Shown here: positions 12,829 to 59,057 of the stretch, in pieces
Numbering within the stretch: position 1 is the stretch's first letter
Layout: every line of letters begins with the position of its first letter
Source of the DNA: an archaeon GW2011_AR15
GTDB taxonomy: Archaea > Nanobdellota > Nanobdellia > Woesearchaeales > GW2011-AR15
Direction of reading: 5' to 3'
Length of the DNA: 64,000 nt
Assembly: GCA_000830295.1 (NCBI GenBank)
Contig: CP010425.1
Span: 1,093,691-1,157,690, forward strand
The notes under the pieces: model-generated
Told to the model about the DNA's origin: nothing
Databases searched by the model: none
What the model saw: the letters and a program-made list of their open reading frames with translations, nothing else
Made by a program: the position numbers and the translations under genes

Positions 12829-12840
12829 GGGGCTATGGTG
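12829..12840 (+). repeat. Direct repeat of the tRNA-Pro(GGG) 5' end
   Basis: GGGGCTATGGTG identical to 12919-12930, 90 bp upstream. Confidence 0.85.
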
Positions 12841-12918
12841 CAACTGCTATGCGTCAGTTGGCACCGCATGTGCGACATGCGCCTTTTCCAAAGGCTTAAT
12901 CCCACTAAAAGAAAATAA

Positions 12919-12991
12919 GGGGCTATGGTGTAGCTTGGTATCACACAAGGCTGGGGGTCTTGTAACCGCAGTTCGAATCTGCGTAGCCCCA
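12919..12991 (+). tRNA. tRNA-Pro (GGG)
   Basis: Acceptor GGGGCTA/TAGCCCC, anticodon arm CAAGG-CTGGGGG-TCTTG, T arm CGCAG-TTCGAAT-CTGCG; CCA not encoded. Confidence 0.95.
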
Positions 12992-13064
12992 TTTTTTCGT
13001 TCTGTTAGCCTGCTAACAGGACTGGGCCTGTTTGGCTCAAGCGTTTCTTAAAGGCTTGGTTTGT

Positions 13065-13080
13065 AATCTGCGTAGCCCCA
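13065..13080 (+). repeat. Direct repeat of the tRNA-Pro(GGG) 3' end
   Basis: AATCTGCGTAGCCCCA identical to 12976-12991. Confidence 0.9.
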
Positions 13081-13110
13081 CATTATTTATCGTTAACTTA
13101 ATAATACACT

Positions 13111-13137
13111 GGGTTGGTAAGGGTGAAACCCTTACGT
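13111..13137. repeat. Dispersed palindromic hairpin repeat (second copy at 39742-39768)
   Basis: GGGTTGGTAAGGGTGAAACCCTTACGT vs GGGATGATAAGGGTGAAACCCTTATGT, 24/27 identical. Confidence 0.85.
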
Positions 13138-13164
13138 CAAAAAAATATAGTGCTGTCTTTCTTA

Positions 13165-13446
13165 CTATTCATCTACAGTAAACAATTTAGAATCCTTAAC
13201 TTTAAACAGGCCGATCCTCGCGCCGGCATCCAGCCAGCCATGCGCATAGTTAAGGGCGGCAAATGCAGTGACCTTATCTCCCTTGCTGCGGAAATGCCCT
13301 GCATCGCTGAAATATCTTGAGGCCATATCAAAGAAATCCTCTGCCTCTTTTCTCCTCTCAGGATCAAACCTGCCTTCAGCCATTTTCAGGGCCTTTTCTG
13401 TGACTGAAAAATATCTTTTCAGCTTTTCATCTGTTATCCTATCCAT
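13165..13446 (-). CDS. DUF357 family protein
   Basis: MASRYFSDAGHF...AFAALNYAHGWLDAGARIG. Confidence 0.9.
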   Translation of the reverse strand: MDRITDEKLKRYFSVTEKALKMAEGRFDPERRKEAEDFFDMASRYFSDAGHFRSKGDKVTAFAALNYAHGWLDAGARIGLFKVKDSKLFTVDE

Positions 13447-13587
13447 CTGCTGAGGGATATATTCATGCTTTATTTATTTTATCATGTGTACTTATTTACA
13501 TTTTAGTATACTTTTTTCCATATTAATATACAAAAAATAGATAAATTTAAATACCTGTGTGATATATCCATAAATTCTGATAGTTAT

Positions 13588-14088
13588 ATGGATCAAAAAA
13601 AAGCATACCGAAAAATTGCTATCACTCTTTTCCTAGTCCTCGGCCTGCTGGTCGTGGTATTTGCAGCCATGCTCCTCTTTAATGTAACTGACTACGGAAT
13701 AACCATTGCATCATTCGGCGCAACAGTCATGATGATACTTTCAAAAAAGAAAGTTGAAAACAGGAAAATAATCGGGGCATATATAGCAGCCTCTGTAATC
13801 GGGTTTATCATGGCAAGAGTCCCAGGCTCAGTACTGTTTAATGTTGCCGTCGCTGGTGTAGCCTCAGTAATAGCAATGACTGTCTTGGAAATGCAGCATG
13901 CTCCTGCAATAGGTATTGCCATAGCAATGGTCCTTAACAATTTCTCATTCTGGACTGACGTGACTATAATATTTTCAATACTCCTTATCATCGGCATGGC
14001 TATGATACTGAAGTCATTCATCAGGAATCCTGAGAGAATACTGAACTTTGTGAAAATAGAAACAGAAAAGATAAACTGGGATTTCTAA
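13588..14088 (+). CDS. HPP family membrane protein
   Basis: Multiple TM segments, IASFGAT and HAPA motifs. Confidence 0.7.
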   Translation: MDQKKAYRKIAITLFLVLGLLVVVFAAMLLFNVTDYGITIASFGATVMMILSKKKVENRKIIGAYIAASVIGFIMARVPGSVLFNVAVAGVASVIAMTVLEMQHAPAIGIAIAMVLNNFSFWTDVTIIFSILLIIGMAMILKSFIRNPERILNFVKIETEKINWDF

Positions 14089-14126
14089 GAAAAATATATA
14101 AAACCCAACATTAATCAATAAGAATT

Positions 14127-14543
14127 ATGAAACAAGACCAGCTCCTGTTTTCATCGCTTTTCGCGGTTTTTTTTGGATTCCTTATATTCATACTCTCCAT
14201 AATGAACCAGGGCCTCAGGCTTATTGCCATATTCACAACATATTATGTGCTCTTTCTCCTCCTTGGGCTTGTGATAATGCTAACCGGCTTTGTATTCATG
14301 CTCATATGGCATGTAAGCAACAGGCAGCCCTTTGAGGATAAGGAAAATAAGAGAGAAAGCTTCTACGGGTATCTTGCACTGGGAATATTCTCACTGACAA
14401 TGGGCTTCCTTTACATGTTCTATTTCCATGACAGGAACACGACACTGTATTATGTTTTCATTTTCGTAAGCATCGGGGGAATAGCCCTGCTGGTAAAAGG
14501 CCTGAAAAATTTCTATATTAATGTTATCGAAAAAAAGATATGA
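14127..14543 (+). CDS. Hypothetical 4-TM membrane protein
   Basis: Four hydrophobic stretches. Confidence 0.7.
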   Translation: MKQDQLLFSSLFAVFFGFLIFILSIMNQGLRLIAIFTTYYVLFLLLGLVIMLTGFVFMLIWHVSNRQPFEDKENKRESFYGYLALGIFSLTMGFLYMFYFHDRNTTLYYVFIFVSIGGIALLVKGLKNFYINVIEKKI

Positions 14544-15330
14544 CATTGCTGAAATTCATCTTGACATAATCTGCCGGATCGAGTGATTTTTTCTTCAGCT
14601 CAAGCAGCCCTGATTCCACATTCGTGCTGCCGAAAGGAATGAAGAAACCTGCCTTGTGCTCAAGTTCCCTTATCTGTATCAGGGCAAAATACCTAGCAAT
14701 AATTGATGCCGCAGAAACTTCAGGGTATTTTGAATCCGCGTTCTTCTCCCTGATGTCCCCTACTGAGCAGCCGGGATACAAGTCAACTATATGAATAGCT
14801 TTTTTTGAAAGCTTGTTATAGCATTTAAGGTGGAGATTATCAAGAAGTTTTGTTGTGTTATTTTTTGCTATCATCGCATTGTATTCTCTTGGATATAAGG
14901 ATTCAACATGATAGTTCTTCGGGTATCTCCCGATAAGCTCTTCCCCCAGTTTCACTATCTGCGGCTTGAGCAGTTTTTTTGAGTCTTTTACGCCGAGTCC
15001 TTTAAGCTCCTTCCGTATCGTGTCATCTGCCATGAATGCCGCAACAACAATGCCACCGAACGTGTCTCCCTTCAGGGTTTCATCTGAACCGACTGACATA
15101 GGCCTGGATTTCTCTTTCTTTATTGCTCCTGTAAAAAGAAGAAGTTTCTCTGCCTCTGCTGTATTCTCCTTTTTGCCCTGCACAAGCAGCTTTCCCGTCT
15201 TGTAAAGGATTATGCTGCAGCTGCCGGAAAGCCTTATCTCCTCATGCTTTGATTTCGGCTTTTCCTCTTTAAATCCGTATTTTTTTATTTTTTTCAGGCC
15301 GGTTTTAGTCACATTGTCAAAGCTTGCCAT
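14524..15330 (-). CDS. Ribonuclease HIII-like protein (TBP-like N-domain plus RNase H2-type catalytic domain)
   Basis: ILYKTGKLLVQGK N-domain; GSDETLKGDTFG, GVKDSKKL, VSAASIIAR. Confidence 0.8.
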   Translation of the reverse strand: MASFDNVTKTGLKKIKKYGFKEEKPKSKHEEIRLSGSCSIILYKTGKLLVQGKKENTAEAEKLLLFTGAIKKEKSRPMSVGSDETLKGDTFGGIVVAAFMADDTIRKELKGLGVKDSKKLLKPQIVKLGEELIGRYPKNYHVESLYPREYNAMIAKNNTTKLLDNLHLKCYNKLSKKAIHIVDLYPGCSVGDIREKNADSKYPEVSAASIIARYFALIQIRELEHKAGFFIPFGSTNVESGLLELKKKSLDPADYVKMNFSNVISFFR

Positions 15331-15332
15331 TA

Positions 15333-15809
15333 TTATCCACTCTTCCCCTGGAAATCCTCATCTATAGCCTTAAGGTATTCCCTGAGCCTTTCAATAATGC
15401 TGGGCACAAGGAACCTCTCTATTTTTTCCCTGAATATGTCCTGGAGAGGAGAGAATTCGCTTATCCTGTATTCATTTTTGACCTTTTCCACAATAAGGAC
15501 TTTCCTCAGCCTTCTTACCTGCCTTCTTATGTTTGAGGCAGCTGCTCCTGCATCACCCAGCTTATATTCTTTTCTGAATGCCAGCACTTCATCCCTTATC
15601 CCGTCAGAAGAAAGCAGCTTATTTTCCTTTCTTGCCTCAAGCAATACATAAAGGACATCAACCACTATATCCCTTGAATCGCCCGGGTTGAGAAGCCCGA
15701 GGCTGAGGCATAATTTCCTTACAAGCTCCCTGCTGTTAAGATTATAGGGCTTTTCATATCTCCTTAATGTGATTTCTGCTAAGGGTGTGTCTACCTGCTT
15801 GGATTGCAT
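15333..15809 (-). CDS. Conserved hypothetical protein, probable winged HTH
   Basis: LRRYEKP, CLSLGLLNPGDSRD, SNIRRQVRRL helix followed by a beta-hairpin. Confidence 0.7.
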   Translation of the reverse strand: MQSKQVDTPLAEITLRRYEKPYNLNSRELVRKLCLSLGLLNPGDSRDIVVDVLYVLLEARKENKLLSSDGIRDEVLAFRKEYKLGDAGAAASNIRRQVRRLRKVLIVEKVKNEYRISEFSPLQDIFREKIERFLVPSIIERLREYLKAIDEDFQGKSG

Positions 15810-15858
15810 GATTAAATATTTTAATCATAAGTTTATAAATATTTTGGAACTCCAGAAG

Positions 15859-16161
15859 TCAGTTATCAAAGCTGCCGCCCGGCCTGCTTGCTTCCAGCCT
15901 GTACACATCCGGGCTATTTATTAAATCAGGCAGTTCTGCATAAGGCATGCCAATTGCATATATCCCGCCTATTCTACCCATTTTGCCTTTAAAATCCAGT
16001 CCGGATTTTGCCCGCATAAGAAAATGAACTTTTGTTGTATTCAGGTCAATGCCCGGATCTTTTGTCATGAGGATATGGTACTGGTGCATCATGTACGGGT
16101 CAACTTTCGGGGATTTAAGTGCCTCTTCAATTTTCTCCTTCAGAGAAGTTTGGTCCTGCAT
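15859..16161 (-). CDS. Small hypothetical protein, resembling a subtilase propeptide/inhibitor fold
   Basis: IGGIYAIGMPYAELPDLINSPDVYRLEAS pattern; TATA upstream. Confidence 0.5.
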   Translation of the reverse strand: MQDQTSLKEKIEEALKSPKVDPYMMHQYHILMTKDPGIDLNTTKVHFLMRAKSGLDFKGKMGRIGGIYAIGMPYAELPDLINSPDVYRLEASRPGGSFDN

Positions 16162-16240
16162 AGTTTCATTAATAAAACTAGTTTATATTTAAATTTTGTT
16201 AGCTACATTTTTATATAACATTGTATTCTTCTTTTCCTCT

Positions 16241-16441
16241 ATGGGGGACTATATTGATGCTTATGACCATGAAATTTATAGCAGGATCCTCTACAGGCAT
16301 GCGCTTGAAAGGGACCCTGTAACTGCTGCAGAGATTGCAAAGATGGCAGGATTGACAGGAGACCAAATTTCTAATATCAAATACGTTGGAAACGGTCAGA
16401 TCCATGCTGATATAAATCTTGAAAGAAGAGTTAGGGAGTAA
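16241..16441 (+). CDS. Small hypothetical protein
   Basis: ATG 16241 ~25 nt after TTTATATA; 66 aa. Confidence 0.5.
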   Translation: MGDYIDAYDHEIYSRILYRHALERDPVTAAEIAKMAGLTGDQISNIKYVGNGQIHADINLERRVRE

Positions 16442-16477
16442 GTCTTAGAAAACTTTAAGTATAACAATCTCATTGGA

Positions 16478-17257
16478 ATGGAAATGATTAATAGGCATAC
16501 AGGCATTGTTGCAGTTCTCATTGCCGGCGGAATTGTTCTCGCAGCATGTGCTTCTCCGGCACCTCAGCCTACTGTTACATTAGAGCCAACGGTAGCTTAT
16601 ACTGCAGCACCAACGGTAGCTTATACTGCAGCACCAACGGTAATCCCCACATCCACTCCAATGAATCTTCCGGTCAGAGATGCCATATCTGAAGCAAGAA
16701 CTGGTTTAATTAAGTCGTTTCAGGAAAATGGTGGCTATTTACTAGAAAGCGATTATGAGAACCATGTTGATGAAGAAATAAGGAGAACAGGACTTAATCC
16801 TAAAGAATGCAGTCCACTTGACTCTTGGATTTATTATGAACTTTTTTCAAACTCTCTCAGCATTGATAAAAAAATTGGCGCGGATGAAGATGCCCAATAT
16901 TACATCTATGATTATTCCGGCCTTCCAGAGAATGTTGAAAGAGCATCAATTAGATACGACAATTTGAGAGATGGACTTGAAGATTATTTATCTAAATTTA
17001 TGGGTGATGGGCCAATCCATATAATTGTCCTCATGGATATAGTAAGAGGGTATGTTGAGAGGACTAGCGACTATAAAGCATCAGAGCTTTGGAAAACTGA
17101 GCTTTGGGGAAGGCTGACATTGGATATGCGAGATGAATTATACGATGGAAAGGTTGAAGGGCTTCTAGAATTTAATTTTCCCCCTTATGTATGTGGGGTG
17201 CCATCTGATGAAATAAGAAATACCTTCAGAGAGTTGACTCCGACAGAGCAACCATAA
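16478..17257 (+). CDS. Putative lipoprotein with Pro/Thr-rich linker
   Basis: Hydrophobic signal ending in lipobox LAAC; PTVAYTAA repeats. Confidence 0.7.
   Translation: MEMINRHTGIVAVLIAGGIVLAACASPAPQPTVTLEPTVAYTAAPTVAYTAAPTVIPTSTPMNLPVRDAISEARTGLIKSFQENGGYLLESDYENHVDEEIRRTGLNPKECSPLDSWIYYELFSNSLSIDKKIGADEDAQYYIYDYSGLPENVERASIRYDNLRDGLEDYLSKFMGDGPIHIIVLMDIVRGYVERTSDYKASELWKTELWGRLTLDMRDELYDGKVEGLLEFNFPPYVCGVPSDEIRNTFRELTPTEQP
16586..16642 (+). repeat. 24-bp in-frame tandem repeat (~2.4 copies)
   Basis: CCAACGGTAGCTTATACTGCAGCA x2 followed by CCAACGGTA. Confidence 0.9.
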
Positions 17258-17334
17258 CTCTTTTTATCTTTTAATCACAAACTTTATAAAGCATCTCCTA
17301 ATCCAGAAAGTATACATTTTCGAGGTGTTATGAT

Positions 17335-17559
17335 ATGGAAAGCGCAAGACCACTGGATGCCCTTAACAAGGCAAGGAATAAAAGGGTAATAGTTGATTTA
17401 AAGAACGGCAAGCAGCTTGCGGGCAAGCTGAATGCTTTTGATATCCATATCAATGTTGTCCTTGATGAAACAGAAGAAATGGTTGACGGGCAGGTCAGCA
17501 GGAAGCTAGGCACTGTATTCATAAGAGGGGACACAATAATCCTGATTTCTGCAGAATAA
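17335..17559 (+). CDS. Sm-like (Lsm/SmAP) protein
   Basis: RPLDAL, GKLNAFDIHINVVL, FIRGDTI; upstream of rpl37e. Confidence 0.95.
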   Translation: MESARPLDALNKARNKRVIVDLKNGKQLAGKLNAFDIHINVVLDETEEMVDGQVSRKLGTVFIRGDTIILISAE

Positions 17560-17569
17560 GTGAGTTAAC

Positions 17570-17752
17570 ATGACAAAAGGAACGCCATCAATGGGTAAGA
17601 AGTCCGGTAAGACTACCCACATAAGGTGCAGGAGATGCGGACAGAAGACATACCACAGGAGAAAAAACAACTGCAGCTCATGCGGCTATGGCGTTTCCCC
17701 AAGGATAAGATCGTACGCCTGGATGAAAAAGAAAAAGCTCACACATTCTTAA
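17570..17752 (+). CDS. rpl37e: 50S ribosomal protein L37e
   Basis: [24 protein letters not shown]. Confidence 0.96.
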
Positions 17753-17832
17753 TTACTCTTTTCCTGCTATTTCAGTAAAATATTTAAAAGAAGTAAAAGT
17801 TCATTCATACACCCGGCGGAATCTATGTTTAT

Positions 17833-17968
17833 GCGGAGGTGCCGGAGCGGTCAAACGGGACAGGCTTAGGTCAGTCCAACACTATTAAGGTGTGCTGAGG
17901 CGAAAGCCGATGAATGTAAGACACCTGTTAGCTTAGTGCTTACCCAGGTTCGAATCCTGGCCTCCGCA
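17833..17968 (+). tRNA. tRNA-Leu (TAG) with a 52-nt intron (17871-17922) at canonical position 37/38
   Basis: Acceptor GCGGAGG/CCTCCGC, ACAGG/CCTGT anticodon stem, long variable arm, TTCGAAT loop; BHB with central helix CTTA/TAAG and bulges GGT and ACA. Confidence 0.92.
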
Positions 17969-18043
17969 CTTTTCTTTATGTGTGCTTGACGAACAGAGTG
18001 AGGAAACACACAGCTCCATCAATGCTGATAAGGATTGGTGGGT

Positions 18044-18058
18044 ATCCTGGCCTCCGCA
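18044..18058 (+). repeat. Direct repeat of the tRNA-Leu 3' end
   Basis: ATCCTGGCCTCCGCA identical to 17954-17968, followed by a T-tract. Confidence 0.9.
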
Positions 18059-18078
18059 TTTTTTATTCTAAAATTATG

Positions 18079-19056
18079 TCAGAAATATTTAAGTTTGAAT
18101 AGTACCCATATTGAGATAGAGGAGAAGATAAGCGATATCAGGACAACAATGCCGAATGCATGCGGGGACTGCTGGAAAGGCAGTGGTATGTTCATCCCGT
18201 ATATGCTTGCAATCAGCACAGGGAGCGAGATTATAAGTGTTATTGAAGTAAGGATTTTTATCACGACGTTCAGATTATTCGATATTATTGAGGCAAATGC
18301 ATCCAGAGTATTTGACAATATATTTGAGTAGATATCTGTCATCTGGATTGCCTGGTTTGTCTCATCTATGATTTTTGTAATAAGGTATTCATCCTCATCA
18401 GTCTTCACCCTTATGCCGTATTTTGAAACACCGTACTTGGTCCTTCCGTTTTCCTTGCGGCCTTTCTTCTTGCGCCCCTCCTCAGCAATCCTCTCAATCA
18501 GGATTTTATTTGACTTAAGCGACGTGTTGAAATATACAAAGCTCTTTTCAAGCTGGAGATAATCCATTACCAGTTCGTTTTTTTGTGATTCGGCAAGCTT
18601 GTCCTCAGCATTGTACATCTTGTTTTTAAGATCTAAAAGGTATGCCAGGTAGAGCCTGGCAGAAACCAAAAGCAGCCTGAAAACCAGCTGTGTCTTCCTA
18701 AAAGGAAAGTTCTGGGTCTTGAGTTTTGAAATAGTGTCGTTTTCGAAAAAGCAGATAGTAAGCACAAATTCATTTGTCGAAAATATCCCAAGCGGGACAG
18801 TATAGTATTCCAGATCCTTTCCCAGATTATTATATGGTGTCCTTATGATTATAAAAGTGAACTTCTCATAGTTTTCTATTGCAGGCACTTCATCAATATC
18901 CTTAAGCGATATGAGCAGCTCTTCCGGTATGTCGAGCATTGACTTTATTCTGGTGATTTCGCTTTCAGTCGGCGAGATAACGTTTACCCAGCAGTTTTTT
19001 TCAAGCCTATCTAGAACTTCAAGCTTTTTCTGGGTCGGGCGGAGTATCTCAATCAT
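18079..19056 (-). CDS. corA: CorA family Mg2+/Co2+ transporter
   Basis: SIISNNLN, YGMN signature between two C-terminal TM helices. Confidence 0.92.
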   Translation of the reverse strand: MIEILRPTQKKLEVLDRLEKNCWVNVISPTESEITRIKSMLDIPEELLISLKDIDEVPAIENYEKFTFIIIRTPYNNLGKDLEYYTVPLGIFSTNEFVLTICFFENDTISKLKTQNFPFRKTQLVFRLLLVSARLYLAYLLDLKNKMYNAEDKLAESQKNELVMDYLQLEKSFVYFNTSLKSNKILIERIAEEGRKKKGRKENGRTKYGVSKYGIRVKTDEDEYLITKIIDETNQAIQMTDIYSNILSNTLDAFASIISNNLNVVIKILTSITLIISLPVLIASIYGMNIPLPFQQSPHAFGIVVLISLIFSSISIWVLFKLKYF

Positions 19057-19179
19057 GTGATGCAGGTTATTCCGATGTCCCTTATAAATTTTTCTGCCTG
19101 TAATTTTTCATGCATAATCCCGGAAGCTATCCGGCTTTCCCGTTTATACCAATTTAAAACCCTGCGGTATCTTCATGGC

Positions 19180-20712: not shown

Positions 20713-20715
20713 AAA

Positions 20716-39611: not shown

Positions 39612-39685
39612 GGGGTTATGGTGTAGCTTGGCTATCATCCGTCGCTTGGGACGACGAGACCCAGGTTCAAATCCTGGTAACCCCA
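39612..39685 (+). tRNA. tRNA-Pro (TGG)
   Basis: Acceptor GGGGTTA/TAACCCC, CGTCG-CTTGGGA-CGACG, CCAGG-TTCAAAT-CCTGG. Confidence 0.95.
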
Positions 39686-39771
39686 TTTAACCTTACGGTT
39701 AATACCAAATATGGGCTATTCAGCGAAGCTGAATAGGGCACGGGATGATAAGGGTGAAACCCTTATGTGGT

Positions 39772-39790
39772 AATCCTGGTAACCCCACCA
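39772..39790 (+). repeat. Direct repeat of the tRNA-Pro(TGG) 3' end, extended by CCA
   Basis: AATCCTGGTAACCCCA identical to 39670-39685, followed by CCA. Confidence 0.9.
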
Positions 39791-49601: not shown

Positions 49602-49675
49602 GAATGATGGTAGGCGGTTTCCAGTTATTAAGCATTTCCAAAAAATTTATAACCCGTGCAGGATATTCATGGTCC

Positions 49676-51022: not shown

Positions 51023-51065
51023 TATGTTTCTCCTCTTGTTTTTGAGTTTATTAATCTTTTGATTT

Positions 51066-53078
51066 CTATTCCAGTGACAATCCTGAATAGAATGGTGAGC
51101 CCTTGTACTCCTCGCTTGGCGCCATGTCTCCCACCAGGTATCTTGGGCCTTCTGTTCTTCCGAAATAGCTCCTGTAGACATCTCCCCATGCTGGCCTTGC
51201 GCTCGGGTCTGTCCAGTTGTCATGCGTAAAGCCTGCAACATGTATGCCGTAGACCGGGCTGTTGAAATGCATCCATGTATCCGGCAGGCTTGTCAGAGGG
51301 TTGAAAGAACCGGACTCAACTATGAATTCGCTCATGCCTGCTTTTTTTGCCTGCTCGACAAACTCTTTTATCGGTGCATTGCCGTCCCCTGCAGTAAGAT
51401 GCTCATCATGAAAGCCGTAGTTGTCGCTTATGTGGATGTGGCCTACAATCCCGTCCTTTATCAGCCCCTGTGTCTTGTCCAGCAGCCATTTGTTGAACCT
51501 CTTGTCCCTGTCTTCAAGGGATTCTCCTTCCTTGCTCTTGAAATATTTCCTCCATATGTTGATATGCCCTATATCAAAAGTCGCCTTTATGTGCTTTTCA
51601 GCCAGCTTCTTTGCCTCTTCTTCATTCTTTCCGTATTTGGACTTCAGCTCTTTTGCCATGGCTGCCCTTCCGTCCTGCACCAGTTTCCTCAGCTCATCCG
51701 GATGGCTCCCATACATCTCGGGGAACAGGTTTTCAGGGGCAAGGTAAAGATCATTTTTCAGCTTCATGGGTGTGTCTCCCTGCTGCTTCTTTGCTTTTTC
51801 AGACATCTGCCATGTGTAAATCCCAAGGTCTGCCATTGACTTTGAGCTTTCTTCAACTGCAAAATCTGATGCGGGTTTTAGCCTCTCAACCATCTCAAGA
51901 GTCTCCATTGACTGCCTCTTGCCCATTATATCATACTCAGTATGCCTCTGTATATTCCTGTCCACCTGTGAAACCATCTCTTCAAGATATTCGACGGGGT
52001 CTACTACATTAGGAGGGATAAACAGCCCCACTTGCGTCTCGCGCTGGACCTGCCACCAGTCTTTTTCAGGCACTCTTTTTTTCAGGTCCCTGTAAAACAC
52101 CAGTGCTTTCTGGATCTTTTCCCTTTCCTCAAGCATTTTCTCATAAGCCCCTTTATGGAACCTGCCGAAGTTTATGTAATACTGGACCTGATTGAGGGCC
52201 TGGGTCCTGTAGAAATCCTTAAAGTATTCTGATTCACTCCGGGGGACTGACTGGCCTGCTGCCTCATATTCCTTTTTTCTGTGCCCAACCCAGTCATTGT
52301 ATTTCATAAGGTTGACTTTGACTGTGCCGTCTTTTTCCAGTTCATACACTGGCGTCTTCCCTTTGTGCACGTGGTCATATTTTTTCAATGACTCATCCAC
52401 AATATAATTGCCGTTTTCATCTTTCAGGTAGACGAACCTGCCGCTCTCTCTTTTTATTATCGGCACCGGTATAAGGTCGTTTCTTTTTACGCCCACTACT
52501 CTCTTTGTCAGCGGGTCTGCGAGGAAGAACTGCTCCCTTTCTTTTTCTTCAGGGTACATCTCAAACAGCTTATCGCCGTTTCTTGCATTGTCCGGAAGCT
52601 GGGAGTAGAATGACCTTGGAGCCTCTCCTGTATGGAAAACTATTGCTCCTCCTGTTGTTGCCTCTGCTGCGAAATGGACTGCTCGCTTTATCTCATCGAT
52701 TGCGTGCTTCCTCTGCTCATCTGAAAATGCCTGCTGCCTCATATCCAGCCCTGAAAGCCCCTGGACGCCGACTGTTGCGTGCGTCGTTGTCTCTACCTTG
52801 TTGAACTCTGCCAGCTCTCTCATATCCCTCCTTTCCCTCTTACCGAATGTTTCCGGAGTTGGGTTTTCTTTCCTGCCCTTTTCAGTGCCGAAAAAAGTCA
52901 TTTCCACCCTGTTGGCTCCGTGAAAAATCCTTGCCTTAAGCGCATCTGTCTGGTGCTGGAACGGGTTGGAGGTTGTTCCGATCTCCTCAATCCCGACATC
53001 CATGGCCCTGTCTATCTCTTTCATCTCCCTGCTTTGCGGAGCCATTTCCCTGTCCATGTTAGTGTAATATTCATTCAT
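51066..53078 (-). CDS. Xylose isomerase/AP endonuclease 2-type TIM barrel with a large insertion
   Basis: TTHA, IVFHTGE, LAPEN, TFDIGH, HIHISDNYGFHDEHL-GDG, VE. Confidence 0.8.
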   Translation of the reverse strand: MNEYYTNMDREMAPQSREMKEIDRAMDVGIEEIGTTSNPFQHQTDALKARIFHGANRVEMTFFGTEKGRKENPTPETFGKRERRDMRELAEFNKVETTTHATVGVQGLSGLDMRQQAFSDEQRKHAIDEIKRAVHFAAEATTGGAIVFHTGEAPRSFYSQLPDNARNGDKLFEMYPEEKEREQFFLADPLTKRVVGVKRNDLIPVPIIKRESGRFVYLKDENGNYIVDESLKKYDHVHKGKTPVYELEKDGTVKVNLMKYNDWVGHRKKEYEAAGQSVPRSESEYFKDFYRTQALNQVQYYINFGRFHKGAYEKMLEEREKIQKALVFYRDLKKRVPEKDWWQVQRETQVGLFIPPNVVDPVEYLEEMVSQVDRNIQRHTEYDIMGKRQSMETLEMVERLKPASDFAVEESSKSMADLGIYTWQMSEKAKKQQGDTPMKLKNDLYLAPENLFPEMYGSHPDELRKLVQDGRAAMAKELKSKYGKNEEEAKKLAEKHIKATFDIGHINIWRKYFKSKEGESLEDRDKRFNKWLLDKTQGLIKDGIVGHIHISDNYGFHDEHLTAGDGNAPIKEFVEQAKKAGMSEFIVESGSFNPLTSLPDTWMHFNSPVYGIHVAGFTHDNWTDPSARPAWGDVYRSYFGRTEGPRYLVGDMAPSEEYKGSPFYSGLSLE

Positions 53079-53085
53079 TTTTTAC

Positions 53086-54792
53086 CTACTGCCCAGGATC
53101 AATCCAGTACAGGTTGCCGCCCGGGCCCATCTTATATCTCATGTATCCTTCAAAGCACGCCTCAACTGCAAAATGCTCTGCCCTGTGATGGATTTTATGG
53201 TGCTTGAATGCCTCTTTTGCATCAGGCTTCTTATGGCCGTGGCCTCCGTCATGGTCGTCTTTTTTCTCTTTTTTTGCCGGGCTGCCTGTAAATCCCTTTG
53301 CTATATCCCCGAATCCCCTGAATATTGAGACAAAGGGGTCAAGCACATCAGGGAGTTTCATGCCCTCTTTCTCATGCTTGTAGTGCTCTTCCTCATCCCC
53401 CGGGAAATGCAAAGTTGGGTCTGCCTCTTTCAGGTATTTTTTCAGGTCATCTCCAAGTGCATTCATTGCTGCCTCAACAGAGCCGTCTATGGCACTCATA
53501 AGGTCAATCTCATCATCCTGCCTGTATTTCTTGTAGTTCTCAATCTGCTCATGGTCCCATGCATAAGCCCTCAAAGTGATATCTGCCATTCCTGCATATA
53601 TCGGGCCCTTGTGCTGGTATTCATAGCTGTGGAAAGAAAGCTCGGGCTTTACCCTGAAGAAAAGGTGCATTGAGACAACAGCAGCAGAATGCCCCTGTTT
53701 CCCGCCTGCCCCGAAATCATCCCTTATGAAGAGAAGCTCAAGCTCTATTATCTGCGACTCGAATGCATTTATTATCTCTGCCCTCTCCATGTTCTTCTCA
53801 TAGAGCTGCAGCCTTCTTGCATTTCTTAAATACGGCTTTACCCATGCCATGTACATCTTGATAGTATCATAATGCTGCTTGAAGTATTTTATTTCAAAGT
53901 CCCTCCTTACTTCCAGCTCCTTTTTTGTCCTCCATTTCCACTCGTAATACTGCCTCAGCTTTCTCTTCAGGACTTCCTTGATTTTCTCATTGAATTTTAT
54001 GGCATCAACCTCTTTCTCCAGGCTTTTCCTGTCTTTTATCTGTATCCTGAAGAACAAATCAGGAAGTATGGTGAACCCCATTGTTGCAGAAAGCCCGTAT
54101 ATTGAGCCGGGGTTCTTGGAGCCGCCTTCAACCTGGTCAACCCACAATCCTTTCAGGACAATCTCTGAGCTTAATGCATTTTCAGGAAAGCCTTTTTTAT
54201 CCCCGTCGCTGTCATAATAATACTGGAGCCTCTCATCTATGATCCTCAGCTCCCTTACCATCTGGAACAGTCCCTTTATCATGTCGCTTATTCCTTTCAG
54301 GTATTGCGATGCCTGCCCCTGCTGCGCCCCCAGCCTGGTCTGCATGTTTCCGAATGTGCTGGATGCAACGCTTGATGCATGCGTGTCAATTACTTTGTCC
54401 ACTCTTTCAAATCCCCATGACTCATTGAAATAACGCAGGAACCAGTAATATGTCTGCTCTATGTTGAATTCCGGGTATTCAAGAACCAGCCTGAATCTTC
54501 TTGCAGGATCCGGAAATTCTGTAGGCACTATCCTGTGCTGGAATTTCTCGAATGATTCCTGGTCTGCATCATCAGCTTTAAGCTCTCCTGCCTTGATAAG
54601 GTCTCCTTTTACAGGATTTTTTGCGTTTACAAATCCGTATTTCCTCAGGCGTGACTGCACCGGGTCTCCCCCTGAAGTAACTCCTGTCTTTTTATCCAGC
54701 TCATACTCGAGGTGGTGTATCTCTTTCCTCAAGTCTTCAGAAGTCTTCTCTTTTTTCTTCTTTTTCTGCAGGAAGGGTATCTTGAGTTCCAT
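53086..54792 (-). CDS. Conserved hypothetical protein with His-rich C-terminus
   Basis: 568-aa ORF co-oriented with the TIM barrel gene (7-bp gap). Confidence 0.75.
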   Translation of the reverse strand: MELKIPFLQKKKKKEKTSEDLRKEIHHLEYELDKKTGVTSGGDPVQSRLRKYGFVNAKNPVKGDLIKAGELKADDADQESFEKFQHRIVPTEFPDPARRFRLVLEYPEFNIEQTYYWFLRYFNESWGFERVDKVIDTHASSVASSTFGNMQTRLGAQQGQASQYLKGISDMIKGLFQMVRELRIIDERLQYYYDSDGDKKGFPENALSSEIVLKGLWVDQVEGGSKNPGSIYGLSATMGFTILPDLFFRIQIKDRKSLEKEVDAIKFNEKIKEVLKRKLRQYYEWKWRTKKELEVRRDFEIKYFKQHYDTIKMYMAWVKPYLRNARRLQLYEKNMERAEIINAFESQIIELELLFIRDDFGAGGKQGHSAAVVSMHLFFRVKPELSFHSYEYQHKGPIYAGMADITLRAYAWDHEQIENYKKYRQDDEIDLMSAIDGSVEAAMNALGDDLKKYLKEADPTLHFPGDEEEHYKHEKEGMKLPDVLDPFVSIFRGFGDIAKGFTGSPAKKEKKDDHDGGHGHKKPDAKEAFKHHKIHHRAEHFAVEACFEGYMRYKMGPGGNLYWIDPGQ

Positions 54793-54923
54793 TTTAGCCT
54801 TATAGCTCTAAATAATATACTAATTTCTATACTAACATATTGTTTTGGATATAAATAGTTTTCTATTTGCTGCCCTGCTCAGCATACAAACATATAAAAA
54901 TAATCGTGATTTAGCTAATCCCC

Positions 54924-56456
54924 ATGGATATGCTTGAGCTGTCAAGGAAACTTCACCCCCTTGAAAGGAAAGTTCTCCCCAATCTTGAAAAAACCATTTC
55001 TTTTGAGCAGCTTGTCGAGAAGTGCGGCATGCAGGAAGTAGAGGTTATGAGGGCAGTCCAGTGGATGGAGAACAAGGGGATTGTCACAGTAAAGAAAGAG
55101 GAAAAAGAGATTATATCTCTTGACAGGAACGGGCTTGACTACAAGAAAAACGGGCTGCCTGAAAAAAGATTTCTGGATGCTGTAAAGGACAAGGCGCTTT
55201 CGCTTGCTGAAATAGGGAAGAAGGCAGGCCTTGACCAGAATGAATTGAGTATCTCTATGGGGCTTCTGAGGAAAAAAAATGCAATTGATGTAAAGAAAGA
55301 CAAAGAGCTCATTGTAAGCATATCAAAAGAAGGAAAAGAGTTCCTCAAAAAAGAGACAGCTGAAGAAAAGTTCCTGGACCTGCACTTCCCGGTTGAGGAA
55401 TCAAAGCTTGAAAAGGACCAGAAGGCTGTATTTGACGAATTCATGAAAAGAAAGGAGATTGTCAAAAAAGACAGGAGGGCCATGAGGGAGATTTCATTGA
55501 CAGGGACAGGAGAAAAGCTCTCAAAGCTCAAGATTTCTGATAATGTTGCAGACAAGCTGACATCAAAAATGCTGAAAGAGGGATCGTGGCAGAAAAAAGA
55601 GTTCAGGAAATACGATGTCGAGATCAATGTGCCAAAAATATCAGGAGGAAAAAGGCATTTCACCAACCAGGCGGTTGAATACATAAAAAATATCTGGCTG
55701 GACCTTGGATTCAGGGAGATGACCGGAAACATGGTGCAGACAAGCTTCTGGGACCTTGATGCCCTCTTTGTTCCTCAGGACCATCCTGCAAGGGATATGC
55801 AGGACACATTCTACCTGAAAACCCCGAAAAAAGGAAAGCTGCCGGACGCACGGTTTGTGAAAAGAGTGAAGGCAACCCATGAGAACGGCTGGACAACAGG
55901 CTCGCAGGGATGGAAATCTGCATGGGATGCTGAGAAAGCAAAGGAGAACCTTCTGAGGACGCATACAACCGTATTAAGTGCGCAGACAATTGCCTCACTG
56001 AAAAAAGAAGACCTGCCTGCCAAGTTTTTCGCAGTGGGAAAATGCTTCAGGAACGAAACAATGGACTGGAAGCACTTATTTGAGTTCTACCAGGTTGAGG
56101 GGATTGTTGTTGACCCTGATGCAAATTTCAGGAATCTCCTGGGCTACCTTAAAGAATTTTTCAGGAAAATGGGCTACCCTGATGTCAGGATAAGGCCCGG
56201 CCATTTCCCCTATACAGAGCCTTCTGCTGAAGTGGATGTGTGGCATCCTGTAAAAAAAGAGTGGGTTGAGCTTGGGGGAAGCGGGATTTTCAGGCCGGAA
56301 GTAACAAAACCCCTCTTCGGCACAGAAGTCCCTGTCCTCGCATGGGGGCTTGGGCTTGACAGGATAATAAAGGAAAACTGGAATATAAAAGACATAAGAG
56401 AGCTTTACAAGAATGACCTTAAGCAGCTAAGGGAAATGAAGATATGGCTGAAATAG
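54924..56456 (+). CDS. pheS: Phenylalanyl-tRNA synthetase alpha subunit
   Basis: PQDHPARDMQDTF, LRTHTT, FPYTEPS, AWGLGLDR. Confidence 0.97.
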   Translation: MDMLELSRKLHPLERKVLPNLEKTISFEQLVEKCGMQEVEVMRAVQWMENKGIVTVKKEEKEIISLDRNGLDYKKNGLPEKRFLDAVKDKALSLAEIGKKAGLDQNELSISMGLLRKKNAIDVKKDKELIVSISKEGKEFLKKETAEEKFLDLHFPVEESKLEKDQKAVFDEFMKRKEIVKKDRRAMREISLTGTGEKLSKLKISDNVADKLTSKMLKEGSWQKKEFRKYDVEINVPKISGGKRHFTNQAVEYIKNIWLDLGFREMTGNMVQTSFWDLDALFVPQDHPARDMQDTFYLKTPKKGKLPDARFVKRVKATHENGWTTGSQGWKSAWDAEKAKENLLRTHTTVLSAQTIASLKKEDLPAKFFAVGKCFRNETMDWKHLFEFYQVEGIVVDPDANFRNLLGYLKEFFRKMGYPDVRIRPGHFPYTEPSAEVDVWHPVKKEWVELGGSGIFRPEVTKPLFGTEVPVLAWGLGLDRIIKENWNIKDIRELYKNDLKQLREMKIWLK

Positions 56457-56466
56457 ATGGTGAAAA

Positions 56467-58122
56467 ATGCCGACAATAACAATTAACAGGAAAGTGCTGG
56501 ACAAAATAATAGGGAAGAAACTGCCTGATAAAAAGCTAAAAGACAGGATCTCAATGCTCGGCACTGACCTTGAGAGCGTGGGAGAAGATGATATCATTGT
56601 GGAGATATTCCCCAACAGGCCGGATATGCTCTCAGAGCAGGGATTCGGAAGGGCGCTGAGCTCATTCATAGGGGAGAAAACAGGCCTGAGAAAATACACT
56701 GTGAAAAAATCAGGGGAAAAAGTCATTGTTTCAAAGGAAATGAAGAGCGTGCGTCCCTACACTGTGTGCGCACTGATAAAAAACCTTAAGCTGGACGATG
56801 AGAAAGTAAGGGAGATAATACAGATACAGGAAAAGCTGCACATAACCTTCTGCAGGAGAAGGAAAAAAGCAGCAATCGGAATCTATCCGCTGGAGAACAT
56901 AAAACTGCCCATATATTTCTGCGCGAGAAAGCCCGAGGATATTGTTTTCAGGCCCCTTGAATGGAAGAAAGAGATTAATGCAAAGCAGATACTTGAGCAG
57001 CATCCTACAGGGATTGAATATAAGCATCTTGTAAAAGGCATGAAAAAGTATGCAGTATTCCACGGTTCAGATAATGAGATATTAAGTTTTACTCCTGTTA
57101 TAAACTCCCACCACACAGGGAAGATTACAGACAGGACAAAAGAGGCATTTTTAGAAGTGAGCGGCTCTGACCTCCACACTGCAAATTATGTGCTGAACAT
57201 AATGGCTGCCAGCCTTGCGGACATGGGCGCTGATATCTACTCAATGGAGGTTGTCTATCCTGATAAAACCCTTGTCACTCCTGACCTTTCAGCAAGAAAA
57301 ATGAAATTCAGCGTTTCCTACATAAACAAGTGGCTCGGCCTGGCTCTTGATGAGAAAAAGCTGAAAAGCCTGCTCGAAAAAATGGGTTATGGCTATGAAA
57401 AAGGTCATGCTTTAATTCCCTGCTACAGGCCCGATGTCATACACCCTGTTGACCTGGCAGAGGACATTGCCATTGCATACGGCTATGAGAATTTTAGGCC
57501 AGAGCTGTCCACAAAAGGCACAGTGGCAAAAGAGGATGAGTTTGAAAAATTCAGGAAAAAAGTATCCAGCCTGCTGGCCGGCCTCAATCTTCTTGAGCTA
57601 AACTCATATCATATTTCAGGAAAAGATATCCAGTTCAGGCTCATGGAATTGAAGGCAGAAGATTATGTTGAACTGGAAAATTCAAAGTCAGAGGAGTACA
57701 ATATAATGCGGCATTCAATGCTTGCAAACCTCATGCAGGTGCTTAAGGAGAACACGCACAACGAATACCCACAGAACATTTTTGAGTCAGGCTATGTTTT
57801 CAGGACAGGGGATTCTGAGACCGGAGTTATTGAAGAAAACAAGGTTGCTGTTGTGCTCTGCGACAGGGATGCTGATTACACAAAGATCCGGCAGGTCCTT
57901 GATTACCTGATTGCCTCTCTCGGGCTTGAATGCGCTGTAAAAGAAGCCAGCCACCCGAGCTTCATTGAAGGCAGGTGCGGAAAAGTGGTTTGCGGAAAGA
58001 CAGAGATAGGGGTAATAGGTGAAGTCAGCCCTAAGGTAATAAGCAATTTCTCTGTTGAGATGCCTGCTGCTGCTTTTGAAATAAGTCTGAGTGCGCTCTT
58101 TGGCATGATTGAGAAAGTTTAA
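56467..58122 (+). CDS. pheT: Phenylalanyl-tRNA synthetase beta subunit
   Basis: PNRPDML, QEKLH, RPDVIHPVDLAEDIAIAYGY. Confidence 0.97.
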   Translation: MPTITINRKVLDKIIGKKLPDKKLKDRISMLGTDLESVGEDDIIVEIFPNRPDMLSEQGFGRALSSFIGEKTGLRKYTVKKSGEKVIVSKEMKSVRPYTVCALIKNLKLDDEKVREIIQIQEKLHITFCRRRKKAAIGIYPLENIKLPIYFCARKPEDIVFRPLEWKKEINAKQILEQHPTGIEYKHLVKGMKKYAVFHGSDNEILSFTPVINSHHTGKITDRTKEAFLEVSGSDLHTANYVLNIMAASLADMGADIYSMEVVYPDKTLVTPDLSARKMKFSVSYINKWLGLALDEKKLKSLLEKMGYGYEKGHALIPCYRPDVIHPVDLAEDIAIAYGYENFRPELSTKGTVAKEDEFEKFRKKVSSLLAGLNLLELNSYHISGKDIQFRLMELKAEDYVELENSKSEEYNIMRHSMLANLMQVLKENTHNEYPQNIFESGYVFRTGDSETGVIEENKVAVVLCDRDADYTKIRQVLDYLIASLGLECAVKEASHPSFIEGRCGKVVCGKTEIGVIGEVSPKVISNFSVEMPAAAFEISLSALFGMIEKV

Positions 58123-58147
58123 ATATTGGTTCTGAAATTACTTAGAT

Positions 58148-58795
58148 ATGGGGCCTCCAAGAAAAAAACATTATTCTCTTGAGCAGGTGGTTGCGGGCTG
58201 CTCTGTTATCGCAGGCCAGATAGCTGAAGTCTACAATAAGCTGGGCTCTGATGAAATAAATATCCTCTATATAAAAAACGGGGGCAGCCTGCCCGGGGAA
58301 ATCCTGGGGCATATGCTCACAGAAAGGGGCTTTTTTGTCAACCTTTATTCGCCTCATTACGGAAGATATGATGAGAGCGGCTTTGGCGGAAAAATAGAGA
58401 TAAAAAAAGACCTTAGCCGGCTAGACAAGATAATGATAGCAAAGAGCATAAACAGGGACAACCTGGCTATACACCTTGATGAGCTTGCTGACAAGGGCGA
58501 GACCCTTGAGTTTGCAAGAGAGGATATAAAGGGGTATGGGAATATAGATGAAGAAAAGTTCAGCAATTATGTTTTCACTGCTGTGCTCTGCAGGAAGCCT
58601 GATTTTGCCGCTCTCCCGGATAACAATCCGTTAAAAGCTTCTCTCAAGTTTTGTGCATATCCTGACGCACCAAACAGATGGCTGACATTCCCATGGGAAA
58701 AAGACTCCAAGTTTTACAGGAAGAAGATTGCTAATCTTGTGTATAATGCTCCTGTTTCAGAATTAAGGGAATTTGCAGGGACGCTGGTTAAATAA
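58148..58795 (+). CDS. Type I phosphoribosyltransferase family protein
   Basis: IKNGG, LDELADKGETL PRPP-loop, WLTFPWE. Confidence 0.75.
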   Translation: MGPPRKKHYSLEQVVAGCSVIAGQIAEVYNKLGSDEINILYIKNGGSLPGEILGHMLTERGFFVNLYSPHYGRYDESGFGGKIEIKKDLSRLDKIMIAKSINRDNLAIHLDELADKGETLEFAREDIKGYGNIDEEKFSNYVFTAVLCRKPDFAALPDNNPLKASLKFCAYPDAPNRWLTFPWEKDSKFYRKKIANLVYNAPVSELREFAGTLVK

Positions 58796-58961
58796 GCCCT
58801 TCTTTCTTCCACTGCACTTCCTTGACTTTTCTCCTGTAATCCGCGTATTTGTCTTCAGGGCTGTATTTTGGAGGCTTGTTCTCTATTGCCTTCCCGCCGC
58901 ACCCGCATTTCTCAGAAAGAGTGTATTTGCCGCAGCTCTGGCATTTTAGGATGTGTTTCAT
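58788..58961 (-). CDS. nop10: H/ACA RNP protein Nop10 (below the ORF-track length cutoff)
   Basis: MKHILKCQSCGKYTLSEKCGCGGKAIENKPPKYSPEDKYADYRR; follows eIF2-alpha. Confidence 0.93.
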   Translation of the reverse strand: MKHILKCQSCGKYTLSEKCGCGGKAIENKPPKYSPEDKYADYRRKVKEVQWKKEGLI

Positions 58962-59031
58962 TTTTCATATGTGGGGCTGAGCTTTTAGCGAATGCCGCAC
59001 CTGTTTTGTCCTCTGTTTTATTAAAACAGAG

Positions 59032-59057
59032 TGGCATTTTAGAATATGTTTCATTTT
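59032..59057 (-). repeat. Imperfect duplicate of the nop10 5' end
   Basis: 24/26 identity to 58939-58964, 93 bp apart. Confidence 0.85.

Follow-up and report, generated by a model that had tools for sequence, protein, structure and literature searches.

Small hairpin inserts that duplicate gene ends across an archaeal genome: a probable family of mobile micro-elements

Background

This paper concerns a set of small, hairpin-rich inserts, each standing between an intact gene and a second copy of that gene's own end, in a 64,000-nucleotide stretch of archaeal DNA (the window), which covers bases 1093691-1157690 of a genome that consists of one contig, 1,157,790 bases long (the source genome, G000). 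A preliminary description of the window had noticed five such loci, four at transfer RNA (tRNA) genes and one at the start of nop10, and had considered them to be either a non-autonomous micro-element system that leaves essential genes intact, or a size-constrained integration scar, noting the likeness of the tRNA duplications to the att sites of tyrosine integrases. We find that the system is larger than first noted, as the five loci are part of a genome-wide set of about 35 events in the 1.16-Mb genome. The mobile micro-element system is real and is not an integrase scar, which bears out the first of these proposals, and the inserts are probably copies of a small non-autonomous mobile element. 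This view is carried by a common structured plan of the inserts, their strict orientation to the gene, and the presence of nearly identical inserts at different genes, each between two copies of that gene's own end.

The source genome has a G+C content of 42.5%, ends in 100 N, and is 96.8% complete. It encodes the archaeal markers nop10 and aIF2-alpha, and introns are present in 25 of its 39 tRNA genes called by ARAGORN. The metagenome runs that hold this DNA come from groundwater and soil, and the metagenome-assembled genomes (MAGs) with the same element are, among the matches listed, mostly labelled Candidatus Woesearchaeota or Nanoarchaeota; the source itself appears to be a DPANN archaeon of the Woesearchaeota/Nanoarchaeota kind. 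Except for nop10, the names used below for protein genes serving as targets rest on our reading of their translations.

Results

Repeats at gene ends are enriched throughout the genome

A repeat search of the window recovered all five direct repeats, each in its place and beside the gene as first named (Table 1). In the genome as a whole, exact direct repeats of at least 12 nt show a peak of spacing at 80-109, which holds 41 of the 209 pairs within 30-400. Furthermore, 63 exact repeats of at least 13 nt were found at a spacing of 50-170, as against 2-6 in ten local shuffles and 1-6 in eight first-order Markov simulations; the pattern is therefore enriched over shuffled controls. When compared with 400 random 70-nt segments, 16 of these spacers have a fold below the 5th percentile.

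At tRNA genes the repeats lie predominantly on one side. A downstream copy of the 3'-terminal 13-mer (at most two mismatches, within 350 nt) accompanies 17 of the 39 tRNA calls, with 0/39 in the upstream control, and an upstream copy of the 5'-terminal 13-mer accompanies two calls, with 0/39 downstream. When more mismatches are allowed, tRNA-Ile, tRNA-Ser(TGA), tRNA-Ser(GCT) and one tRNA missed by ARAGORN are added. Protein genes are used as well, either at the start, i.e. dnaK (repeat of 45 bp, with mismatches), groEL (48 bp), a pilin-like gene (21 and 37 bp, two successive inserts) and nop10 (26 bp), or at the stop, i.e. an Asn/Asp-tRNA-synthetase-like gene (39 bp), a histone-fold-like gene (23 bp), the gene of an HExxH protein (56 bp) and Pth2, encoding peptidyl-tRNA hydrolase (30 bp, or 60 bp if a diverged tail is counted). 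In total, more than 30 unrelated target sequences are used.

The probability that all this reflects chance or an assembly artefact is negligible. In addition to the excess over shuffled sequences, the architecture recurs in relatives and in other MAGs (see below), and contigs of three further metagenome runs span the window loci without differences.

The inserts share one plan with a covarying hairpin

An alignment of 16 inserts reveals one plan, which consists of an often T-rich start, a variable hairpin (H1), the linker (c)TGTTTCC and a second hairpin (H2) with the consensus TCAA-N-GCTTT ... AAAGG-N-TTG(G). By iterated nhmmer searches this family, called family A, was extended to 24 copies at E <=0.01, and spacers across the genome thus share motifs. 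H1 occurs in at least four recurring types, the inserts next to tRNA genes have a tail GTGNG(T), and the elements, which are built of hairpin modules, range in length from 30 to 140 bp. Other subfamilies include a ~45-nt unit at tRNA-Ser/Glu/Thr(TGT), a 60-period unit at two tRNA-Arg genes, and inserts with a terminal TAAGGGT-NNN-ACCCTTA hairpin at tRNA-Pro(TGG) and tRNA-Thr(GGT). Rfam gave no insert match at the gathering score (best sub-threshold insert match, E 0.11), and in the window it matched only two tRNAs.

The hairpin H2 is maintained as a structure. In the H2 alignment, 81.5% of the cells are paired, compared with 71.3% in shuffles, and the covariation score is 0.333, compared with 0.139 in shuffles, none of 500 of which reaches the observed value. 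The pair 16-32 is UA in 10, CG in 6 and GC in 5 of the 21 copies and is never unpaired, and the pair 18-30 is CG in 14 copies and UA in 5, while the pair 12-36 is U.G in 9 of 21, which would be a mismatch on the opposite strand. The forward strand of the inserts also folds more stably than the reverse. Taken together, the covariation, the forward-only U.G pairs and the stability of the forward strand indicate that H2 acts as a single strand of set polarity, either RNA or single-stranded DNA (ssDNA).

For the five window loci, folding confirmed that each spacer is made up of two to three hairpins. The z scores, computed for forward-strand RNA, are -2.6 to -3.1 for four of the five spacers and -1.6 for the insert 5' of tRNA-Pro. 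Two further details of the preliminary description stand in part. The dinucleotide GT does precede the three tRNA 3' copies of the window, but only about half of such copies genome-wide. Two hairpins with TTC loops do exist at 61237-61272, but the family profile gives no match there.

The inserts are oriented to the gene and end at precise places

According to our count, all 20 family-A copies with repeats have H1 turned toward the intact gene; they comprise 12 at tRNA 3' ends, 4 at protein-gene 3' ends and 4 at protein-gene 5' ends. With H1 toward the gene, the forward strand is consequently the sense strand at 3' ends and the antisense strand at 5' ends. Direct repeats flank 19-20 of the 23 family-A copies and measure 11-60 bp over the whole range, 15-22 bp at tRNAs and 21-60 bp at protein genes. 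The repeats at tRNA genes start at position 58 or 59, in the T loop, and end at the discriminator base or at most 6 T's beyond it, and the T run of the element immediately follows the intact tRNA. In protein genes, a repeat at the 3' end stops at the stop codon or at most 4 nt from it in all four cases.

At tRNA-Phe and tRNA-His the copies form arrays, each gene having three 3'-end copies, of which the outermost is the most diverged; new inserts would therefore enter beside the gene. The outer start at 5' ends begins a reading frame that crosses the insert, and in four of the five cases the stop lies at most 5 nt from the real start. Such a frame ending at the real start is present at groEL, dnaK, nop10 and the second pilin copy, and not at the outermost pilin copy; at the dnaK gene of the relative G015, the frame of the outer start stops inside the insert.

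A 'solo' copy was also seen, in which the 123-nt spacer between tRNA-Ala(GGC) and tRNA-Thr(GGT) (genome 24565-24687) is filled by a reverse family-A element with no detectable repeat.

Near-identical inserts point to spread within the genome

The inserts at tRNA-Arg(CCT), tRNA-Ile and tRNA-Val show 91-93% identity, each lying between copies of the end of its own tRNA. Likewise, the inserts of groEL and the HExxH gene, as well as those of nop10 and the histone-fold-like gene, are 87% identical, each flanked by its own gene end. That near-identical inserts lie between flanks belonging to the respective target points to a spread of the element inside the genome, each target being duplicated anew.

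These observations bear directly on the second proposal of the preliminary description. In its fuller form, the repeats would be the attL and attR attachment (att) sites of a larger tyrosine-integrase element that lost its interior, with the 60-90 bp as its fused ends. In tRNA genes, integrase att sites classically occupy the segment between the T loop and the 3' end, and integrative elements typically replace gene ends by slightly different copies, both of which fit; moreover, one Xer-like recombinase is encoded at window 60146-61105 (minus strand). Nevertheless, we consider such an origin very improbable: the inserts have a narrow size range and a common architecture, three tRNA genes carry nearly the same insert with a repeat of their own, more than 30 target sequences stand in a 1.16-Mb genome with a single full recombinase, and 5' ends and protein starts are used too. 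Most of the remote copies of tRNA ends are other tRNA genes, and none, the remainder being uninspected, was seen bracketing a longer element.

Orthologous sites in relatives and matches in other archaea

A comparison of the tRNA-Pro(GGG), dnaK and Pth2 loci showed that relatives have empty as well as differently filled orthologous sites, a pattern of independent gains. Nine orthologs of tRNA-Pro(GGG) were compared. The ortholog in G016 is without insert, those in G005 and G034 have an insert on the 3' side that is unrelated in sequence and comes with a perfect repeat, and that in G018 has two nested 3' copies. G012 carries both a 5' and a 3' insert, the former homologous to that of the window (75% identity) and accompanied by an orthologous outer copy of the 5' end; G015 carries a 5' insert only, and G001 a long, degenerate one. 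An insert at the start of dnaK is found in two of the 16 family genomes, i.e. G000 and G015, after the same nucleotide of codon 7 in both. The two sequences are unrelated, and that of G015 resembles the tRNA-Pro 5' insert of G015 itself. The insert at the end of Pth2 is found in G000 only, of the 12 loci read (0/11 relatives), with three further loci unreadable by motif search.

The exact H2 pattern is present in three of 151 genomes sampled across the order, with 7, 3 and 1 copies, and a scan of the genomes of 185,579 species gave at least 119 loci. The following statements hold among the matches listed. Many of the loci lie in MAGs whose records are labelled Woesearchaeota, Nanoarchaeota, Altiarchaeota, Parvarchaeota, Methanophagales, Methanosarcinales or Thermoplasmatales. 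The repeat-insert-repeat arrangement stands at tRNA ends in other MAGs (L031, L033, L039, L054 and L127), and also at the same synthetase end as in the source genome (L040), and in L034 whole units are found in tandem. Inserts that consist of H2 only (L134, L055 and L052) measure 28-49 bp, with repeats of 15-39 bp; as L134 shows, the repeat can exceed the insert in length. The bacterial matches were rejected as chance-like, having shorter gaps and no hairpin context. In viral contigs, the 14 loci found with the first pattern are all chance matches without the rest of the element, and of the four loci found with a stricter pattern only L146 resembles a true H2.

Element modules occur as tRNA introns

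In tRNA-Gly(CCC), the 80-nt intron consists of a whole family-A element that stands in antisense and has no repeats (nhmmer E 2.3e-14), and in tRNA-Thr(TGT) the intron, 28 nt long, is an H2 module. A UGAUGA ... GAUGA hairpin, like some types of H1, is contained in five other introns, and in our reading of the sequence these hairpins may resemble K-turn motifs. Introns with modules lie at genome 617016-617166 and 765400-765500 and in five other tRNAs.

It could be argued that the inserts are functional RNA or DNA modules, selected as terminators, processing signals or protein-binding sites, with the repeats as by-products of local tandem duplication. The covariation and the G.U pairs belong to the strand transcribed together with tRNAs and protein 3' ends, a T run follows the tRNA, the same modules serve as introns, complete in tRNA-Gly(CCC) and as H2 alone in tRNA-Thr(TGT), and MAGs of several phyla have conserved the sequence of H2, all of which would suit this explanation. 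It is however improbable, as the element is antisense to the mRNA at gene starts, most orthologous sites in relatives are without it, the exact H2 pattern was seen in only three of the 151 genomes sampled from the order, and inserts of 91-93% identity cannot have come to unlinked tRNAs by local duplication.

Displaced gene ends are constrained and no mobilising enzyme was found

Several results weigh against the inserts being copies of a mobile element, at least in the simplest form of that reading. The first of them concerns the outer copies of protein-gene ends. In the coding blocks of the source genome, 13 of the 14 differences between inner and outer copies are at codon position 3 (nop10 2, groEL 2, the synthetase-like gene 1, the HExxH gene 2, the histone-fold-like gene 3 and Pth2 3), the fourteenth being a change of TAA to TGA; by our arithmetic, at least 13 in 14 would arise by chance with a probability of about 6e-6 if each had one chance in three. 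The displaced tail of Pth2 is diverged yet intact, with a stop at the same codon and five of nine residues identical (GITSELKLM-stop versus KITGSLKLI-stop). Similar cases were found elsewhere in frames that we read ourselves: in another MAG, the outer copy of the start of enolase departs from the inner at eight synonymous codons and a single Lys/Arg codon, and L190 and L080 have the stop in place and conservative changes. Unlike these cases, L040 has two Pro-to-Ser changes beside the insert. With all cases pooled, 27 of 39 differing bases are at position 3 by our count. If the outer copy had arisen by plain target duplication it should decay randomly, and the third-position bias says otherwise; a simple cut-and-fill model predicts neither this bias nor the intact tail of Pth2. 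Of all the observations, this bias in codon position is the main one that no simple model accounts for. One possible reading is that the outer copy is the functional allele of another strain, brought in by inter-strain recombination or by an element with homology arms; another is that the locus cycles between inserted and excised states, with both copies regularly under selection.

The second difficulty lies in the missing enzyme. In the 96.8%-complete genome there were zero matches for Cas1 (PF01867; control positive in seven genomes), for reverse transcriptase (RVT_1, PF00078; a source outside the genome is possible), for the Y1 HUH transposase (Y1_Tnp, PF01797), for the TnpB zinc ribbon and IS110, and for DDE_Tnp_1 and rve, other DDE families not having been searched. 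The check for a HUH/RAYT gene accompanying the pattern thus gave none by the Y1_Tnp profile in this genome. Self-BLAST revealed no multi-copy insertion sequence and no sequence of at least 150 bp in more than two copies. As for tyrosine recombinases, the genome has the one full Xer-like protein mentioned above and one sub-threshold Phage_integrase match. A Resolvase match at genome 470331 was rejected, its 257-aa frame being read by eye as a TrmB-like regulator, and with the Viral_Rep profile the control was silent too. The mobilising activity may belong to a family outside those searched, to the host machinery, or to an agent outside the genome.

Thirdly, neither an empty allele nor an excised form was found in four DNA runs, which were searched as contigs, and these drop rare variants. 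Finally, a search for a shared sequence motif beside the protein-gene repeats gave none beyond a weak preference for A before the repeat, and the choice of many sites, as well as their re-choice in other lineages, is left unexplained by the model.

The coding constraint makes it necessary to consider homology-arm integrative micro-circles as a rival. In this case, circle or hairpin DNA of ~60-150 nt, carrying the hairpins and its own copy of a gene end, would enter the genome by a single crossover of the Campbell type within this homology, through general recombination or annealing and with no site-specific enzyme, and the repeats would be hybrids of element and host. The two copies would then be expected to differ as two functional alleles do, which is how the 13 of 14 third-position differences in G000, the eight synonymous codons and one conservative codon of enolase, the Pth2 tails and the stops kept in L190 and L080 all look. 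The whole units in tandem in L034, the repeat longer than its insert in L134, and the recurrence of the same conserved targets across lineages also speak for such circles; furthermore, in the 5' insert common to G000 and G012, the outer copy in each has its own genome's base at tRNA position 9. We nonetheless hold this explanation to be unlikely. The type of insert follows the genome and not the target, as the dnaK insert of G015 is like the tRNA insert of the same genome and unlike that of dnaK in G000. The near-identical inserts of G000 with three tRNA ends would demand frequent new arms, for whose origin the model does not account, arms of 16 nt are short for homologous recombination, and no circle junction was observed.

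The five loci of the window and further observations

The features of the five window loci are collected in Table 1.

Table 1. Direct repeats, genes and inserts at the five window loci (MFE, minimum free energy)
Feature	Window position	Strand	Details
Direct repeat, tRNA-Pro(GGG) 5'	12828/12918		13 nt; period 90
Direct repeat, tRNA-Pro(GGG) 3'	12976/13065		16 nt; period 89
Direct repeat, tRNA-Leu 3'	17954/18044		15 nt, exact; period 90
Direct repeat, tRNA-Pro(TGG) 3'	39670/39772		16 nt; period 102
Direct repeat, nop10 5'	58939/59032		26 nt, 92% identity; period 93
Outer (non-functional) copy of tRNA-Pro(GGG) 5' end, positions -1 to 12	12828..12840	+	repeat family D5
77-nt insert 5' of tRNA-Pro(GGG), three small hairpins, weak family member	12841..12917	+	z -1.56; nhmmer E 0.22
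tRNA-Pro(GGG), intact; first 12 nt and last 16 nt (12976-12991) are inner repeat copies	12919..12991	+	
73-nt family-A insert at tRNA-Pro(GGG) 3'	12992..13064	+	nhmmer E 1.4e-9; MFE -25.3; z -3.0
Outer copy of tRNA-Pro(GGG) 3' end (positions 58-73)	13065..13080	+	16/16 identical; repeat family D7
Solitary hairpin, stem TAAGGGT, loop GAA; type as last hairpin of the tRNA-Pro(TGG) insert	13118..13137	+	
tRNA-Leu(TAG) with 52-nt intron; inner repeat copy 17954-17968	17833..17969	+	ARAGORN intron mode; genome 1111523-1111659; D2
75-nt family-A insert, H1 17979-18012, H2 with extended stem 18015-18042	17969..18043	+	nhmmer E 2e-10
Outer copy of tRNA-Leu 3' end (from position 59)	18044..18058	+	
tRNA-Pro(TGG); inner repeat copy 39670-39685	39612..39685	+	
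86-nt insert, other subfamily, three hairpins (39687-39702, 39716-39736, 39748-39766)	39686..39771	+	z -3.1
Outer copy of tRNA-Pro(TGG) 3' end (positions 58-73)	39772..39787	+	repeat family D8
nop10 gene	58788..58961	-	Pfam Nop10p E 4.6e-17
67-nt family-A insert, antisense to nop10; H1 58967-59004, H2 59011-59031	58965..59031	+	nhmmer E 6.4e-9; z -3.1; 87% identical to insert at genome 1013648
Outer copy of nop10 start	59032..59057	-	differs from inner copy at two third-codon positions

The 3' insert of tRNA-Pro(GGG) illustrates the plan of family A, with a T run, H1 (12999-13022), a small hairpin, a GTTTGG linker, H2 (13038-13058) and the tail GGTTTGT. For the tRNA-Leu insert, the folding energy is -23.3 kcal/mol on the forward strand versus -13.3 kcal/mol on the reverse. 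The last hairpin of the tRNA-Pro(TGG) insert is common to the tRNA-Thr(GGT) insert, and a pattern related to the TAAGGGT hairpin occurs at two places in the genome. The inner repeat copy of nop10 (58939-58964) consists of the 3 nt upstream of the ATG and the first 23 nt of the coding sequence, i.e. codons 1-7 and two bases of codon 8, and from the outer start a 29-codon upstream frame runs through the insert to a stop 4 nt before the real ATG.

The gene of tRNA-Leu(TAG) was missed by ARAGORN with default settings and by Rfam at the gathering score. In the run contigs, the many joints at tRNA-Leu come from tRNA genes of other organisms. In runs X8 and X9, a foreign contig matches tRNA-Leu up to the T loop, continues with 34 unrelated letters and then matches the 3' end (joint 17954 to 18045), the short side being only 19-20 nt; here another organism's tRNA-Leu may have an insertion in its T loop, or an intron that lacks a duplication.

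Another tRNA call deserves mention: at genome 179899-179984, ARAGORN reports a 'tRNA-Stop (tta)' with a 13-nt intron, both ends of which are identical to tRNA-Gln(CTG) at 225865, and which may be a miscalled tRNA-Gln(TTG). Two longer hairpin-rich inserts, one of 117 nt at genome 186591-186735 with an exact 14-nt repeat and one of 139 nt at 863004-863176 with an exact 17-nt repeat, do not match the family-A profile. A 24-nt unit is present in perfect tandem at window 16586-16633 (two copies, 100% identical).

The Xer-like gene stands in a distinct neighbourhood. It is followed in the window by a stretch of low G+C content (28% in 62001-64000), which holds a MazE/AbrB-like frame, a winged-helix frame, an Eco57I-type methyltransferase and a SwaI-like endonuclease candidate below the curated cut-off; the segment 60146-64000 may be an integrated island.

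Discussion

How the element might move

If the inserts are, as we believe, copies of a mobile element, insertion would take place in one orientation at gene termini, with entry in the T loop (position 58/59) at tRNA genes and a few codons inside the start or stop at protein genes. Each insertion would make a fresh direct duplication of the gene terminus, of 11-60 bp. The copy on the H1 side would stay joined to the gene body, leaving the gene intact, and the other copy would be displaced outward. The intermediate is likely to be single-stranded, either RNA or ssDNA of the forward strand, and the insertion mechanism would be one that yields long duplications of variable length, for which the candidates are target-primed copying at a pair of nicks whose distance varies, or copying that runs round a small template in hairpin or circular form. 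The machinery would not be among the known transposases tested.

A more far-reaching proposal, which we put forward tentatively and regard as doubtful, is that the system represents a new class of prokaryotic mobile element, namely a hairpin of RNA or ssDNA, 30-140 nt in length, which would copy itself to gene termini with no transposase of its own, through target-primed copying or by rolling round a circle of ~100 nt with the help of host replication, repair or RNA-processing enzymes, and that cycles between inserted and free states. Such cycling would keep the displaced ends under coding constraint and would lead to repeated use of the same gene ends across archaeal lineages.

Three other origins were considered and set aside. 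Splicing of repeat and insert at bulge-helix-bulge motifs (two 3-nt bulges with a 4-bp helix between them) seems less likely, as inspection by eye showed no such motif at the tRNA-Pro and tRNA-Leu junctions and the hairpins are antisense at gene starts; the intron of tRNA-Gly(CCC) does consist of the same sequence, in antisense. An outer tRNA copy made from reverse-transcribed mature tRNA does not agree with copies that are without CCA and carry trailer T's. A decayed tandem tRNA gene does not agree with an insert that is without the 5' strand of the acceptor.

If the elements move as proposed, they enter a minimal genome at its most conserved and essential genes and do these no harm, with tRNA 3' ends and the starts of dnaK, groEL and nop10 serving as landing pads, and, as no transposase is recognisable, they would imply either an enzyme of a new kind or mobility driven by the host. 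For the annotation of archaeal MAGs, those of DPANN and others, they are a source of pseudo-starts, upstream frames and tRNA fragments. The use of their modules as tRNA introns may bear on the origin of disrupted tRNA genes, and the displaced gene ends, as dated fossils or foreign alleles, could be used for the study of recombination among uncultured archaea. The precise and recurrent choice of gene termini could also become a targeting principle once the mechanism is known.

Comparison with known systems

The element matches no known family tested, and the literature searched, in which subscription journals were outside the coverage, holds no description of such elements. The repeats linked to enterobacterial tRNA genes, as at tyrT, resemble the present system in that the last ~19 nt of the tRNA are repeated downstream at a regular spacing, but they have a unit of ~178 bp, occur in few operons, and lack both a common hairpin family and protein-gene targets. 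The rtT repeat is treated in the preprint 10.1101/2024.07.17.603846. The att duplications of tyrosine-integrase elements and of their derivatives that have lost the integrase, the cis-mobilisable elements (CIMEs), likewise show duplication from the T loop to the 3' end, a restored gene end and an allele-like displaced copy; unlike them, the present inserts measure 30-140 bp, use dozens of unrelated targets, recur with the same sequence at different tRNAs, and have only an Xer-like recombinase in the genome. PMC3293823 deals with a 1.8-kb recombinase element and PMC9897764 with tRNA fragments left behind by large integrated islands.

The palindromic elements related to IS200/IS605, as well as the repetitive extragenic palindromes (REP), their paired forms (REPIN) and the associated RAYT transposases, share with our inserts a structure that is conserved above sequence, the importance of one strand, and a very small size. 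However, they insert without target duplication and need a Y1 HUH transposase, whereas the present system has duplications and no Y1_Tnp match in the genome. MITEs (miniature inverted-repeat transposable elements) of bacteria and archaea are similarly small, non-coding, multi-copy and structured, with direct repeats at the flanks and a patchy distribution among genomes. The family described here differs from them in the absence of terminal inverted repeats, its ends being asymmetric (H1 differs from H2 in the alignment), in repeats of gene ends with a variable length of 11-60 bp in place of the fixed 2-10 bp of MITE duplications, in its strict orientation to the gene, and in having no parent insertion sequence or DDE_Tnp_1/rve match in the genome.

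Among the systems that use Cas1 integrases, casposons make duplications of 14-15 bp and use the 3' ends of tRNA or conserved genes, and spacer integration into CRISPR duplicates a whole repeat. The preference for gene 3' ends and the arrays that grow beside the recognised side are common to these systems and ours. On the other hand, the inserts here come with no Cas1 match in the genome, no inverted termini, a duplication of variable length and a hairpin cargo of 30-140 bp.

To our knowledge, no element resembling the short interspersed nuclear elements (SINEs) is known in archaea. SINEs and other target-primed retroposons of eukaryotes are unlike the present family in that the latter has no reverse transcriptase match in the genome, no A tail, and a strict preference for gene termini. 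Both, however, are small, structured, RNA-like units with a conserved 3' stem-loop and variable target duplications, both include copies truncated at one end (here the H2-only inserts) and a T-rich junction at the other, and the strand that forms the G.U pairs would, as in SINEs, be RNA.

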